Part shown: one piece after another, positions 22,062 to 30,314 of the stretch
How positions within the stretch are numbered: the stretch's first letter is position 1
Layout: each line of letters opens with the position of its first letter
NCBI GenBank assembly: GCA_019686175.1
Contig: JADGHJ010000003.1
Location: forward strand, 1 to 32,000
DNA length: 32,000 bases
Reading direction: 5' to 3'
Source: Chloroflexota bacterium
GTDB lineage: Bacteria > Chloroflexota > UBA6077 > JAJPHF01
The notes under the pieces: model-generated
The model's input: only the letters and a program-made list of their open reading frames with translations
Told to the model about the DNA's origin: nothing
Database searches by the model: none
Made by a program: the position numbers and the translations under genes

Positions 22062-24398
22062 TCACTCGAACAGCGAGGGCTGGTGGGCGGCCGGGGCGGC
22101 ACGCGCCTCCTCCTGCGGGTCGGCGAACAGGGTCTTGAGCTGCTCGGGGCCCAGCGCGGCGGCCAACCGCTGCGCGTAGGTCGTGCGCAGCTTCTTCACG
22201 TACGCTTCGGGATCGTAATCGTTGGCGAACAGCTCGGCCGGCTTCTTCTTGCCGCCCACCGCCTGGTAGTAGCGCACCCGCTCGCCCGGCTTCCAGGTGG
22301 TACGTCCTGCCGCCAGCAGCACCTCATACGCCTCCTCGCGCCGCTTGGCCGCCTGATATTGCGCCGGGGTCTTGGTGAGCGGCATGCTCACGCACAGGTC
22401 GTCGACCGGCACCTCGCGGCGGCGCAGGCGGTCGACCAGGCCCAGATAGAGCCGGCGCAGGCCGTCGAGGTCGTCCGCCAGAATGCACTCGATCGCCTGC
22501 TGCAGGAACCGCTCGCCGTACGGCTCGTTGCGGCTGGAGCGGAAGGACGCGCCGACGGTGCGCAGGCGGCCGTCGTAGCCACGCAGCACATAGTTCTTCG
22601 CCGCATGGCTGTACATCCGCTCCCAGCGCCCGTCGTACTCCACCTGGATCCCCGCCGGCAGTTCGGCCGCCACCTCCGCCACAAGCTGCCGCTCCTGCTC
22701 CTCCGTCCAGTCCGCGGGCACGCTGAACAGCACACCATCGGTGTCGGCCTCGATGAGCGTCACCCCGCGCCGCTCCAGCGCCTCGAGCATCTGCTTCAGG
22801 ATCTCGCGGCCGCGGCGCGTGACCTCGGCCGCGGCCTCGAGGTCGCCGAACAGCGCAAAGCTGGTGCCCATCGCGCCGTAGAAGGAGTTGATGAGCACCT
22901 TCATAGCGGCCTGCACCGCCTCGTGGTGGGCGCGCGTGGCGGTGGCCGCCGCTCCGGCCGTGGCGAGCCGGCGCGCCTCCGCCTTGTGGTGCAGCCGGAG
23001 CCGGGTCAACTCGCGCAGCAGCTCGAGGAACACCCCCAGCCGGTCGCTGCGCGGCTGGATGCGGTAGGTGAGCATGATACTCGGGTACAGCGACGCGACG
23101 TCGGCCTTGACGATGTGGCGCAGGACGCCCGTGCGGAACAGCTCGGTGTGCGCGCCCTCATAGGTACCGCCGACGCCCGGCGCGCGCGGCAGAGAGTGGC
23201 CCGCGGTCACGTAGGCGCGCACCAAGAGGGGCTCGATCAGCCCCTGGCCGGTGCCGGCCGTGGCCACGCGCTCGAACGGCCGCGGCACCATCGCCGCCAG
23301 CGCGAACGACGGAGCGAGCAGGAGCTGCGAGAGGCGGTCCACCTCGCGCACGTCGTCGAGCGCGTAGCGGCGCACTCGCGCTGGGTCGCGCTGGTACTCG
23401 GGCCAGATCGCGGCGCCGTCGAGGTACTCGCGCGTCTCCCCTGCGAAGCCGAAATGCCGCGCTGCCTCCTTCAGGCCATGGCTACGGAGGTCGCGCACGA
23501 TCGCCCCGTAGCGGCGCACGGCGTGCAGCGTGTCCACCAGCTCGCGGCCGGCCAGGCACCAGCGCGTGAAGCGTTCGCTCTTCTCCCCGACCTTGAGCGT
23601 GTCCTCATAGCGGGTGAACTCGCTGCCGTCGCGCCCCAGCGGCAGCGGTACCCCGAGCCGTCGGGCCCGCTCGACCAAGAACGGCACGTCGAAGTCGAAC
23701 AGGTTGTGGTTCTCGATGACGTCCGGGTCGTGTTCGCGGACCAACTCCACGAAGCGGTGGAGCAGCGCCGGCTCGTCGCCGAGGTCGGCGATGTCGAGCA
23801 CTTGCTCCCAGCCGTCGCTGCTGCGAACCGCGATCATGAAGATCTGGTCGCGGTAGCGGTTGAGGCCGGTGGTCTCGAGGTCGAATTGCAGGCGGCGCAG
23901 ATGGTGGTAGCCGAGCCCCTTGTAGTAGGTGCGCCCGGTGCCGATCAGGTACTGCTCGACGGCCGAGCGCGCGTACACCACGTCGCGCAGGTCGTAGAGG
24001 CTCCGGGCCTGCTGCCCTGTGCGCGCGTTGTGGGCCTCGACCACCGCCTGCTCGACGGCGGCCAGGCCGTAGCCGAGCACAAGGTAGCGGTAGTGTAGGT
24101 CGCCAGCGAGGGCGACGAGGCCCACCTCGCCGGGACCGAGCGCGCGGGCGGCGTCGAGGTCGCCGGGCGGCAGCGGCACGCAGGGGTGCGCGCCCAGCAG
24201 CGTGGCGTCCGCGAGCAGGAACCAGTTGGGGAAGCGGTCCTCCTCGCAGACCACGCCGCCGTCCACGCGCCGCCAGACTTGTACACGGCCGTCGCGGCCC
24301 GCCGCGACCGAGACAATCCCCGGGGTCGGGTCGCGCCCGTACAGGAGCGCGTGGGCAGCCTGCTCGATGGCCGAGGCGAGGTCGGGAGATGCGTGCAT
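22062..24398 (-). CDS. polB: Family B DNA polymerase (bacterial Pol II-like) with intact 3'-5' exonuclease motifs
   Basis: Exo I FDLETTG, Exo II NHNLFDFDVPFL, and Exo III YALDDV. Pol motif A DVASLYPS, motif B KVLINSFYG, and motif C EADTDGV. The C-terminus ...HQPSLFE resembles a beta-clamp-binding motif. Start is ATG 24398; the track's GTG 24443 lies upstream of a TATACT -10. Confidence 0.9.
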   Translation of the reverse strand: MHASPDLASAIEQAAHALLYGRDPTPGIVSVAAGRDGRVQVWRRVDGGVVCEEDRFPNWFLLADATLLGAHPCVPLPPGDLDAARALGPGEVGLVALAGDLHYRYLVLGYGLAAVEQAVVEAHNARTGQQARSLYDLRDVVYARSAVEQYLIGTGRTYYKGLGYHHLRRLQFDLETTGLNRYRDQIFMIAVRSSDGWEQVLDIADLGDEPALLHRFVELVREHDPDVIENHNLFDFDVPFLVERARRLGVPLPLGRDGSEFTRYEDTLKVGEKSERFTRWCLAGRELVDTLHAVRRYGAIVRDLRSHGLKEAARHFGFAGETREYLDGAAIWPEYQRDPARVRRYALDDVREVDRLSQLLLAPSFALAAMVPRPFERVATAGTGQGLIEPLLVRAYVTAGHSLPRAPGVGGTYEGAHTELFRTGVLRHIVKADVASLYPSIMLTYRIQPRSDRLGVFLELLRELTRLRLHHKAEARRLATAGAAATATRAHHEAVQAAMKVLINSFYGAMGTSFALFGDLEAAAEVTRRGREILKQMLEALERRGVTLIEADTDGVLFSVPADWTEEQERQLVAEVAAELPAGIQVEYDGRWERMYSHAAKNYVLRGYDGRLRTVGASFRSSRNEPYGERFLQQAIECILADDLDGLRRLYLGLVDRLRRREVPVDDLCVSMPLTKTPAQYQAAKRREEAYEVLLAAGRTTWKPGERVRYYQAVGGKKKPAELFANDYDPEAYVKKLRTTYAQRLAAALGPEQLKTLFADPQEEARAAPAAHQPSLFE

Positions 24399-24431
24399 GC
24401 GCTGGTGCTCCGGCGCCGTGGTGGCGACCAG

Positions 24432-24437
24432 AGTATA
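24432..24437 (-). promoter_or_regulatory. Candidate -10 (TATACT on the minus strand) for polB
   Basis: An AT-rich hexamer between the ADH stop (24472) and polB ATG 24398. The -35 is weak. Confidence 0.35.
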
Positions 24438-24471
24438 GCGCACGCGAGCGCGCCCCTCGCTCGTTGAGCGC

Positions 24472-25743: not shown

Positions 25744-26451
25744 TCAGGCCGGTGGGCTGCTCGCCCGGTACGCTGGGTAGTCGCGCTCCGTGATCGTGCC
25801 CGGCTCCAGCGGCGTGCCCAGTAGCTCCAGCGCGTCGCGCAACACCGCACGCTGCACGTCGTCCTGGAACGGGCGGCCCAGCACGTGGCCGATGGCGAAG
25901 CCGGCCGGGTAGAGCGCGCGCGGTGGGCCGGCTTGCGCCGAGGCCTCCGGGCTCACCGTGATCAACACCGTCGGGAGGCCTCGCATCTCGATCTCGCGTT
26001 GGATCGCAACGACCGTGCGATGGCAGATGTGCGGTCAGCCCGCGGTGAGCACCACTGCGTCCGCCTTCGAGCGTTCCAACCGGTCGGCGATGGCCGGGGC
26101 CGTCTCCTCGTACACCTCACGCAGGCGCGGGGACGTACCCATGTAGCCGACATGATAGTTGCTCACCGCCGCGATAACGCCTGCGTCCGCGAGCTCGCGC
26201 AGGCGCGCCAAAGGAAACACGCAATTGATGTCGCGGTCGGCGTCGGTATGGTCGTAGTGGGGATGGGTAATCATGAGGTCGGCCAGCGGGGTATCGCCAG
26301 GAATGACGCGAAACTCCTTCTCGCCCTCCGGCCGGAACGGCGGCTGATCCCGCAGGTGGACCCCTGCTGTGGTGACAAGGGCCACGGTGGTCTCACTCAG
26401 CGGCCGGCGGTTTGGCGTGTAGGGAATGCAGCGACGGGAGATCTGCGGCAT
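25744..26451 (-). CDS. Short glycine/sarcosine/betaine/D-proline reductase component-B (GrdB/PrdB) family protein, predicted selenoprotein (in-frame TGA at 26037..26035)
   Basis: Track ORFs 26035..26451 and 25744..25986 are in the same frame, with no other stop between them. Joined, they read ...RSKADAVVLTAG-U-PHICHRTVVAIQREIEMRGLPTVLITV... (235 aa). GGAGAGGA SD precedes ATG 26451. A hairpin lies downstream of the TGA. Confidence 0.8.
26003..26021 (-). promoter_or_regulatory. Candidate bacterial SECIS hairpin for the GrdB-family gene
   Basis: On the mRNA: UGA, 13 nt, then AUCGCA-CGGUCGU-UGCGAU (perfect 6-bp stem, 7-nt loop containing GGUC). Confidence 0.5.
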
Positions 26452-26495
26452 CGCGAGTCCTCTCCGAAGCGCTATGGTGTGAGCGTGCGCGCGAT

Positions 26496-26526
26496 GGGCG
26501 GGGGTAGCCTCAGAGCACCCCCGCCC
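26496..26526 (-). other. Intercistronic GC hairpin between the two selenoprotein genes
   Basis: Perfect 9-bp stem GGGCGGGGG / CCCCCGCCC with a 13-nt loop, starting 5 nt after the peroxiredoxin TAG. No U-tract follows. Confidence 0.4.
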
Positions 26527-26531
26527 GTTCT

Positions 26532-27038
26532 CTAATCGAGTTTGCGGAGCACGTCGAACACAAGCTCGGGATCGGGCTGCTCGGTGATCTCGTGCACGTC
26601 GATGTAAGCGATCTTGCCCTGCCGGTCGATCACGAACATCGCCCGCTCAGCGATGCCCTTGTCCTCGATCAAGACCCCGTAACGGCGAGCCACCTCGCCA
26701 TGGGGCCAGAAGTCACACAGCAGGGGATAGGTGATGCCACCGAGGGAATCGGCCCACGCTTTGTTGCTGAAGGTGCTGTCGACGCTGATGCCCACGACCT
26801 GGGCATTCATGCCCTCGAAGCGCGCCTTGAGCGCCTCGTATTCGGGCATCTGCACGCTTCAGACAGGCGTCCAGGCTACGGGGTAGAACGCGAGCACCAC
26901 GTGCTTCTGGCCACGCAGCGCGCTGAGCCGGAACGTGTCGCCGAGATGGGTCGGCAGCTCGAAGTCCGGCGCCTCGTCCCCGACCTGGAGAGTAGGCGTC
27001 CGGTTGGCCTTCGAGTGCGTGCCCTTCTGGACCGCCAT
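26532..27038 (-). CDS. Peroxiredoxin (AhpC/TSA-Bcp-like), predicted selenoprotein with Sec at the peroxidatic position (in-frame TGA at 26861..26859)
   Basis: Manual translation from ATG 27038 (GGAGGAG 10 nt upstream) gives [88 protein letters not shown]...FVIDRQGKI... (168 aa). The track shows only the 107 aa after the TGA. Confidence 0.85.
26816..26838 (-). promoter_or_regulatory. Candidate bacterial SECIS hairpin for the peroxiredoxin gene
   Basis: On the mRNA: UGA, 20 nt, then CGAGGCGC-UCAAGGC-GCGCUUCG (8-bp stem including one G-U pair, 7-nt loop with GG). Confidence 0.5.
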
Positions 27039-29795: not shown

Positions 29796-30314
29796 CTACA
29801 CAGTCGCCTCGGTGCGGAAGGTCCGGTCCCCGCGCTGGACGACCAAGGTGACTCGGTGGCCTGACTCGAGTGTGTTGAGCGCGGCCTCGAGGTCGGCAGC
29901 CGAGCGGATGGGCCGGATGTTGAACTCGGTGATGATGTCGCCAGCTTGCAAACCCATGCGTTCGCCGACGCTGCCCGGACGCACGCGGCCCACGTAGGCA
30001 CCGAACACGGGCACCTGGCCCTGCCGCATGGCGATCTTGCTCGCGTCCGCCACGCTCAGGCCGAGCGAGGGACGCTGCGCCCGAATCGCCGCCACCAGTC
30101 GCTCCAGCCCCGCGCGGTCGAAGCCGATCACCACCTGACCGTTGTAGGTAATGACGGGCACGGCTCGCTGACCCGTGCGGGCCACGACCTCCGCGGCCGC
30201 CGCGGGATCGGCCGCCACATCGCGCTCCTGGAACTGGACGCCTCGCTCGGCGAGGTACGCCTTCGCCAGCTGACAGTAGGGGCAGGTAGGCGTCGTGTAG
30301 ATGGTGACCTGCAT
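29796..30314 (-). CDS. Glutaredoxin (NrdH/Grx-like, CPYC)-PDZ domain fusion protein
   Basis: N-terminus MQVTIYTTPTCPYCQLAKAYLAERGVQFQERDV...VPVITYNGQVVIGF (Grx fold). C-terminus GAYVGRVRPGSVGERMGLQAGDIITEFN...VTLVVQRGDR (PDZ). No signal peptide is evident. Confidence 0.8.
   Translation of the reverse strand: MQVTIYTTPTCPYCQLAKAYLAERGVQFQERDVAADPAAAAEVVARTGQRAVPVITYNGQVVIGFDRAGLERLVAAIRAQRPSLGLSVADASKIAMRQGQVPVFGAYVGRVRPGSVGERMGLQAGDIITEFNIRPIRSAADLEAALNTLESGHRVTLVVQRGDRTFRTEATV

Follow-up and report, generated by a model that had tools for sequence, protein, structure and literature searches.

A PrdB-like selenoprotein gene of a Chloroflexota bacterium, conserved beside the gene of an AhpE-type peroxiredoxin

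A stretch of 32,000 nucleotides (nt) from a Chloroflexota bacterium (GenBank assembly GCA_019686175.1, contig JADGHJ010000003.1, positions 1 to 32,000; hereafter the window) carries on its minus strand a gene, 26451..25744, whose single reading frame is interrupted by an in-frame UGA. It lies directly downstream of a peroxiredoxin gene that is interrupted in the same manner. The gene is best explained, at a probability of about 0.6, as coding for a selenocysteine (Sec)-containing PrdB-like oxidoreductase, equipped with a selenocysteine insertion sequence (SECIS), that is paired with the AhpE-type peroxiredoxin and resolves it. PrdB-type selenoproteins outside the clostridia have been known since 2005, and the window gene is a further, mis-annotated one; as a selenoprotein discovery it is ordinary, and its interest comes from the conserved two-selenoprotein module.

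One gene across an in-frame UGA

The features of the gene discussed in this section are:

25744..26451, minus strand: PrdB-like (GRDB-family) selenoprotein gene, from its translation 235 codons including one Sec codon; stop codon TGA at 25746..25744
26035..26037, minus strand: in-frame UGA, Sec residue 139 in the motif TAG-U-PHI-C-HR, supported by Cys at this column in homologues and Sec/Cys interchange among loci
26023..26025, minus strand: codon of the partner (resolving) Cys143; C143, H144 and R145 are invariant, and the motif is UxxxC here and UxxC in relatives one codon shorter
26458..26465, minus strand: Shine-Dalgarno-like GGAGAGGA, seen in the sequence itself and followed after 6 nt by the PrdB-like ATG

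The frame opens with ATG at 26451..26449 and runs through 138 sense codons to the TGA at 26037..26035, then through 96 further sense codons to its stop; the sequence around the internal UGA reads AVVLTAG-U-PHICHRTVVAIQREIEMRGLPTVLITVSPE. A first-pass annotation, made from the letters of the window alone, had described two open reading frames (ORFs) in one frame, separated by this TGA and by 16 stop-free codons before the ATG of the second, and had joined them into a product of 235 residues. All coordinates were verified, and the internal TGA is the sole interruption of the joined frame. A six-frame scan of the 32 kb returned just two TGA-split ORF pairs with a coding-like G+C content at third codon positions (GC3) on either side, namely the PrdB-like gene and the adjacent peroxiredoxin gene; beyond the TGA, the PrdB-like frame has a coding-type GC3 of 0.90. 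A genome-wide reassignment of TGA is excluded, since at least nine other genes of the window, all well supported, end with this codon, including the ClpC-like, RadA-like, SpoU, PolB-like, alcohol dehydrogenase (ADH), EamA and TrkA genes. Both TGAs are retained in four independent assemblies of the organism (ENA, Logan, NCBI GCA_037024555.1), with 1–6 single-nucleotide polymorphisms over the gene pair, which excludes an error of sequencing or of assembly as well.

Gene callers nevertheless render the PrdB-like gene in the four assemblies as a 138-aa product plus a 74-aa fragment, and the 138-residue N-terminal piece is named "hypothetical protein" by NCBI. Read at face value, these records describe a pseudogene or a true protein of 138 residues that ends at the TGA. 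Such a reading is already contradicted and retains next to no weight: the frame after the TGA is 55–74% identical among relatives with many invariant residues, the TGA occupies the same column in 61 species, and the GC3 is that of coding sequence. The segment 26451..25744 is one real gene, not two.

The assignment to the GrdB/PrdB family, proposed in the first-pass annotation, is borne out by profile searches. The joined product exceeds the threshold of the Pfam family GRDB (PF07355; 37.3 bits versus a cutoff of 22), with residues 9–137 aligned to profile positions 214–346 of 347. The top NCBIfam profile is PrdB (TIGR04483, E 2.5e-54), whose alignment spans positions 20–226 of 238 and whose score of 184.3 bits lies under the equivalog cutoff of 300. 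The GrdB-type models TIGR01917 and TIGR01918 score 46.4 bits versus a cutoff of 602 and 54.1 versus 65.45, respectively; they cover the C-terminal half only (profile positions of about 220–430), and the two-half architecture of about 430 residues is not matched. Because the GrdB-type models align by their C-terminal halves alone and far under cutoff, the protein is PrdB-sized and not an unusually short GrdB; the earlier picture of an odd short form, much shorter than GrdB, gives way to a length and a domain span that are those of PrdB. On these profile matches the protein is placed, within the GRDB family, in the PrdB-like branch. Searching 5.8 billion proteins yielded 923 homologues; the 120 homologues listed share 54–74% identity over the full length and nearly all comprise about 240 residues.

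These homologues do not end at the position of the internal UGA. In all full-length homologues aligned (sets of 29 and 46) the UGA column holds Cys. A scan of one genome per species furnished 80 loci (L001–L080) from Chloroflexota (Ktedonobacterales, Chloroflexia) and Acidobacteriota (Blastocatellia, Pyrinomonadaceae), and here the codon is TGA in 61 and TGC or TGT in 19. The part downstream of the UGA, counted as 97 codons in the first-pass annotation and as 96 by us, is conserved: about twenty positions after residue 139 are invariant in the two alignments, among them P140, C143, H144, R145, R152, E153, E155, G158 and T161. In the N-terminal part, His/Asp-rich motifs are conserved (H63, H65-Y-D-H68, D72, D74, N76) and Cys8 is almost invariant.

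The first-pass annotation also gave for this family a redox centre made up of a Sec or Cys and of a Cys a few residues later, and the homologues agree, with Cys or TGA at the one column and an invariant C143 at the other. Of the 62 Sec forms (window included), 47 have a distance of 12 nt between the UGA and the Cys codon, and 15 have one of 9 nt. The window motif is U-P-H-I-C (UxxxC), and that of the 15 Sec forms with the shorter distance is U-P-L-C (UxxC), the pattern listed for the PrdB family in the literature. The version U/C-P-L-C is that of the Chloroflexota relatives, with L001 and L069 as the exceptions, and of L008, a locus labelled Proteobacteria; U/C-P-x-(I/V/L)-C occurs in the Acidobacteriota and in the window. 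Since Sec and Cys recurrently interchange at an invariant redox Cys, with the frame conserved on both sides, which is the standard comparative signature of selenoproteins, the internal UGA is almost certainly decoded as selenocysteine.

A GGUC hairpin as probable SECIS core

Two features lie shortly 3' of the UGA:

26003..26021, minus strand: candidate SECIS core hairpin AUCGC-AC-[GGUC]-GU-(U bulge)-GCGAU, beginning 13 nt past the UGA; supported by pairing, covariation and Sec-form specificity
26011..26014, minus strand: GGUC apical tetraloop, presumed SelB contact; GGTC in 59 of 62 Sec forms and 8 of 19 Cys forms

The first-pass annotation drew at this place the hairpin AUCGCA-CGGUCGU-UGCGAU (26021..26003), 13 nt after the UGA, and it is present as drawn. 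Its stem of six pairs was revised in one respect: in the alignment of the 62 Sec forms five pairs are conserved, and the sixth, involving A and U(26008), forms in just 18 of 62 relatives. The refined hairpin has seven base pairs, a GGUC tetraloop and a single 3' bulge, located at the sole position that takes all four bases; 97.7% of its cells are paired across the Sec forms. Pair 27-43 covaries (C-G in 45, U-A in 16, broken in one of the 62 sequences), and its covariation ties the synonymous choice between the His codons CAU and CAC to an Ile/Val change. Across the element, synonymous codons are frozen in the Sec forms (Thr ACG in 60 of 61, Val GTC in 59 of 62, Ala GCG in 56 of 57) and flanking codons vary freely; the 19 Cys forms that serve as the comparison set use ACG in 8 of 13 and GCG in 6 of 14 cases at the same codons. 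An intact stem together with GGUC was found in 52 of 62 Sec forms versus 1 of 19 Cys forms (Fisher 5e-10, uncorrected for phylogeny). A one-codon indel within the redox motif moves the spacing between UGA and stem, which is 13 nt in UxxxC and 10 nt in UxxC forms. The GGUC hairpin probably represents the SECIS core, a claim we hold with somewhat less assurance than the decoding of the UGA itself.

A few loci depart from the general pattern. L063 is a Cys form (TGC) with an intact GGUC hairpin and may represent a recent Sec-to-Cys switch. L001, the top-scoring of the 80 loci and a Sec form, has an AGUU loop, and the Sec form L017 has a divergent element sequence; some Sec forms would hence use a variant element. 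The minimum-energy fold calculated by RNAfold 3' of the UGA is a different, long hairpin with the apical loop AUCCAA (−21.8 kcal/mol). It was rejected as the selected element because its covariation is no better than that of shuffles and its pairs at synonymous positions are broken in 55–77% of relatives. With Sec and Cys forms side by side, and with the GGUC hairpin and the frozen codons largely lost in the latter, the family offers a natural experiment for SECIS prediction.

A two-gene unit with an AhpE-type peroxiredoxin

Upstream of the PrdB-like gene the following features were identified:

26532..27038, minus strand: gene of an AhpE-type 1-Cys peroxiredoxin, itself a selenoprotein, 168 residues by translation (Pfam AhpC-TSA, E 1.6e-39)
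26859..26861, minus strand: UGA within the peroxiredoxin frame, at the column of the peroxidatic Cys; TGA in 51 and TGC or TGT in 16 of 67 orthologues, window included
26790..26804, minus strand: hairpin GCCCA-GGUCG-UGGGC in the peroxiredoxin gene, specific to Sec forms and 54 nt downstream of the UGA of that gene, supported by closing-pair covariation
26496..26526, minus strand: GC-rich intergenic hairpin without a U tract (−27.7 kcal/mol, z −3.4) in the 80-nt gap between the two genes

The PrdB-like gene had been taken for a stand-alone family member, a view that is no longer tenable, since a conserved partner, the likewise UGA-interrupted peroxiredoxin gene, lies directly upstream. In 73 of the 80 loci the PrdB-like gene has a peroxiredoxin homologue beside it, mostly directly upstream and on the same strand; in four of the seven loci without one, the contig ends too near the gene. 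All four Sec/Cys combinations of the two genes occur and stay adjacent (44, 10, 7 and 6 loci), which argues for a functional link and against a mere co-location of selenoprotein genes. We consider such a link between the PrdB-like protein and the peroxiredoxin likely. With regard to a third module gene, no other neighbour family is common to more than 19 of 81 loci (the 80 fetched plus the window). As far as gene order can tell, its conservation shows that the two genes form a unit, with the gene of the AhpE-type peroxiredoxin in first and the PrdB-like gene in second place.

Among the top PDB matches of the peroxiredoxin, the nearest solved relatives are those of M. tuberculosis AhpE (Rv2238c, E 2e-28). 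The sole Cys/Sec column conserved among the 67 orthologues is the peroxidatic one, and the protein is for this reason classified as a 1-Cys enzyme. It retains the full AhpE-like peroxidase signature, with Sec as the peroxidatic residue, and reaches no NCBIfam equivalog cutoff. Public annotation divides it into fragments of 59 and 105 aa. The hairpin within its coding sequence (local fold −11 kcal/mol, z −3.4) is closed by AU in 28, GC in 22 and GU in one of 51 Sec forms, and by an A.C mismatch in 16 of 16 Cys forms. It is the sole Sec-form-specific conserved hairpin of that gene, and its distance of 54 nt far exceeds the usual spacing of a bacterial SECIS. The intergenic hairpin at 26496..26526 may act as an element of intercistronic processing, stability or attenuation.

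As already stated in the first-pass annotation, none of the partner genes grdA, grdC, grdD, grdE and prdA is present in the window. A PrdA/GrdE-type gene is also missing from the neighbour families that the 80 loci of the two phyla have in common, and no Gly_reductase-type Pfam domain was found within 8 kb in two annotated contexts, a cultured Dictyobacter and a 1.7 Mb acidobacterial contig, both with a peroxiredoxin nearby. These neighbourhoods bear on the question whether the protein could be an authentic PrdB, the D-proline reductase subunit, with PrdA and the accessory genes encoded elsewhere in the genome. The name has its grounds: PrdB is the best NCBIfam profile and is covered over its full length, JGI and one NCBI record call homologues 'D-proline reductase (dithiol) PrdB', and the parts of the selenoproteome surveys dealing with PrdB class such sequences as proline reductase (PMC1088965, PMC2398784). 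Yet the score of 184 bits stays well below the equivalog cutoff of 300, and no prdA occurs in the window or in the 80 loci of two phyla, where the conserved neighbour is a peroxiredoxin; a distant prdA locus in the same genome is possible. The hosts, soil Chloroflexota and Acidobacteriota, are presumably not Stickland fermenters, which was likewise counted against a proline reductase. Taken together, a true PrdB is very unlikely; in the favoured reading the PrdB-like protein is not a subunit of D-proline or glycine reductase.

In the cultured Ktedonobacteria isolate Dictyobacter sp. (L085, GCA_036245075.1, 8001..11030) both genes are Cys forms, a response-regulator/histidine-kinase gene lies between the two, and the peroxiredoxin gene is on the opposite strand. 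This organism is a possible Sec-free experimental system.

Several other genes of the window were recorded alongside the unit. A Zn-dependent alcohol dehydrogenase gene comes after the PrdB-like gene. Downstream of it, amid housekeeping genes of a Chloroflexi genome, lies a family-B DNA polymerase-like gene (22062..24443, minus strand; 793 aa, with DNA_pol_B and exonuclease/RNase_H_2 domains). A glutaredoxin-PDZ fusion protein with a CPYC motif is encoded at 29796..30314 on the minus strand; its gene adjoins a staphylococcal-nuclease homologue and is divergent from the gene of an S41 peptidase with a PDZ domain.

Proposed function and comparison with known systems

A resolving Cys is missing from AhpE enzymes, and for bacteria that do not produce mycothiol it has yet to be settled what reduces them (PMC8945050). 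On these grounds the PrdB-like protein is proposed as the resolver of the peroxiredoxin, which has no resolving Cys of its own. In the proposed sequence of events, SelB would bind the GGUC hairpin and Sec139 would be inserted. The peroxiredoxin would reduce a hydroperoxide and thereby be oxidised to the selenenic or sulfenic acid; the Sec of the PrdB-like protein would attack the oxidised peroxiredoxin, Cys143 would resolve the mixed Se-Se or Se-S bond, and a general thiol system would re-reduce the PrdB-like protein.

Within the PrdB-like protein, Sec139 and the invariant Cys143 would constitute a selenol/thiol redox pair (U-x3-C) at the start of a helix. Neither sequence nor profile searches retrieved a solved structure related to the protein. 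The Cys homologue P0009, 62% identical to the window product, has a confident AlphaFold model (predicted local distance difference test, pLDDT, 92). In this model the C/U-x3-C motif sits between strand 131–135 and the N-terminus of helix 141–155, a predicted placement that is the usual setting for a redox-active pair. The specific role of the PrdB-like protein as reductant of the peroxiredoxin is possible, at somewhat less than even odds. In its general form, still more tentatively, the proposal is that the PrdA-less PrdB-like proteins of soil, and perhaps marine, bacteria may be, instead of amino-acid reductase subunits, dedicated resolving and reducing partners of AhpE-type 1-Cys peroxiredoxins and form with them a hydroperoxide reductase of two genes and often of two selenoproteins.

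The main rival accepts the linked pair and assigns it other chemistry: the PrdB-like protein would be a substrate-specific Sec-dependent reductase acting on a C-N, C-S or similar bond, and the Trx-fold peroxiredoxin would donate or accept electrons, comparable to selenoprotein A, or protect the reductase from peroxide. Adjacency does not give the direction of electron flow, the His/Asp-rich motifs and the near-invariant Cys8 are not needed by a plain dithiol relay, and characterised GRDB members carry out reductive C-N cleavage (PMC13188914). Against it stand the lack of a PrdA/GrdE pyruvoyl proprotein and of GrdA, GrdC or GrdD at any locus, as well as the peroxidase signature that the peroxiredoxin keeps in full, with Sec at the peroxidatic position. 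Such a reductase appears rather unlikely to us.

The putative reductant role is suggested by adjacency, by the redox motif and by the 1-Cys nature of the peroxiredoxin. A number of observations weigh against a SECIS-equipped PrdB-like selenoprotein that resolves the peroxiredoxin. Three loci (L008, L016 and L069) have full flanks and yet no nearby peroxiredoxin. The PrdB-like fold is not a thioredoxin fold and has no solved relative; a Foldseek search of the P0009 model versus the PDB gave a best TM score of at most 0.43, hence no close fold and no mechanistic lead. Regarding the RNA element, the selected hairpin has little thermodynamic stability (−5 to −8 kcal/mol, with a z of about −1.5), its covariation concerns one pair and is mostly split between two phyla, and the counts are not phylogenetically independent. 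Rfam gave no relevant match, either for the whole window at gathering thresholds or for 25900..26100 at E <= 10. Furthermore, the loop sequence GGUCG (26010..26014) is complementary to UGACC (26033..26037), that is, to the Sec codon together with CC, the opening bases of the invariant Pro codon. The RNAalifold consensus favours the pairing of these two strands; both are invariant, so covariation is uninformative in this respect. The pairing could form a pseudoknot with the hairpin and reflect either a coincidence or a second function. Lastly, selA, selB, selC and selD were not found in the 32 kb window, nor among the genes called on a further stretch of about 4 kb past its end (L081), and ARAGORN detected no tRNA-Sec in the window, nor did it in 60 loci of relatives.

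Two of these points, the Sec machinery not seen in the window and the complementarity of the loop to the UGA region, which could modulate termination, would also fit a readthrough or recoding of the UGA without Sec (e.g. by a near-cognate Cys or Trp), with a hairpin that promotes readthrough instead of binding SelB. However, the interchange of Sec and Cys at the redox Cys, the GGUC/GU apical loop and the neighbouring UGA at a peroxidatic Cys together make up the standard signature of a bacterial selenoprotein, and the PrdB passages of the literature list the family among the selenoproteins (PMC1088965, PMC2398784). Readthrough without Sec is accordingly a scarcely credible alternative to the selenoprotein.

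Recognition of both UGA genes restores two selenoproteins that are truncated by public annotation, and the two genes indicate Sec decoding in this Chloroflexi lineage. The pairing with an AhpE-type peroxiredoxin in 73 of 80 species-level loci of two phyla provides a testable function for a family that has been labelled "proline reductase" for two decades. A hydroperoxide-reductase module, if true, would give an abundant orphan family of selenoproteins its function and make the PrdB-like protein a candidate for the AhpE reductant still sought in bacteria without mycothiol. The abundance is documented by metagenomic surveys: PrdB ranked third in abundance among the selenoprotein families of the Sargasso Sea, with 42 genes versus 43 for peroxiredoxin (Zhang, Fomenko and Gladyshev 2005; PMC1088965), and in the Global Ocean Sampling data it was among the top families, with 235 selenoproteins and 110 Cys homologues versus 253 for peroxiredoxin (Zhang and Gladyshev 2008; PMC2398784). 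The passages on operons, adjacency and neighbours in the latter paper and the mentions of PrdB or proline reductase in the former contain no reference to a pairing of the two (PMC2398784, PMC1088965). A 2026 review of selenoprotein operons presents grdA-grdB, prdB-prdC, frhA-frhD-hdrA, Prx/SelW and Prx-like/AhpD-like, and the Prx/PrdB-like pair is not among them (PMC13188914). Our literature searches found no published description of the peroxiredoxin/PrdB-like pairing.

The putative SECIS of the window gene resembles the E. coli fdhF element in its layout: a short hairpin soon follows the UGA, its apical loop is GGUC, and one base is bulged. It differs in that its bulge is 3' and lies two pairs below the loop, in its spacing of 13 nt (10 nt in UxxC relatives) and in having no match to Rfam or a covariance model.

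With clostridial PrdB (TIGR04483) the window protein shares the length class of about 240 residues, with profile positions 20–226 of 238 covered, a Sec at the same motif position that is followed by a Cys, and a bacterial SECIS shortly 3' of the UGA; the PrdB motif of the literature is UxxC (PMC1088965, PMC13188914). Unlike clostridial PrdB, it scores 184 versus 300 bits, has the motif UxxxC and a peroxiredoxin partner, and occurs in Chloroflexota and Acidobacteriota hosts; moreover, prdA, prdC, prdD, prdE and prdF are not near the PrdB-like gene in any of the 80 loci. It is similar in type to the 'proline reductase PrdB' selenoproteins of ocean metagenomes, which the survey sections on PrdB describe as PrdB-type, abundant outside clostridia, affiliated to PF07355, with a UxxC motif and with known Cys homologues (PMC1088965, PMC2398784). 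GrdB, GrdF and GrdH, of glycine, sarcosine and betaine reductase, have in common with it the Pfam GRDB domain and a Sec that occupies the homologous position and precedes a Cys (PMC13188914). In contrast to these proteins, the window product matches the C-terminal half of models of 431–435 aa with 46–54 bits, and grdA, grdC, grdD and grdE are absent from the window.

Parallels are offered by the dedicated peroxiredoxin reductant systems AhpC-AhpF, AhpC-AhpD and AhpE-mycoredoxin/mycothiol. The PrdB-like partner has no sequence relationship to AhpF, AhpD, glutaredoxin or mycoredoxin and is without a close solved fold; both partners are here often selenoproteins, and their joint function is a proposed one. 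Common to all is the pairing of a peroxiredoxin gene with a gene for a protein that carries a vicinal redox motif, and with the AhpE systems in particular the module shares an AhpE-like 1-Cys peroxiredoxin, which needs an external resolving thiol or selenol (PMC8945050).

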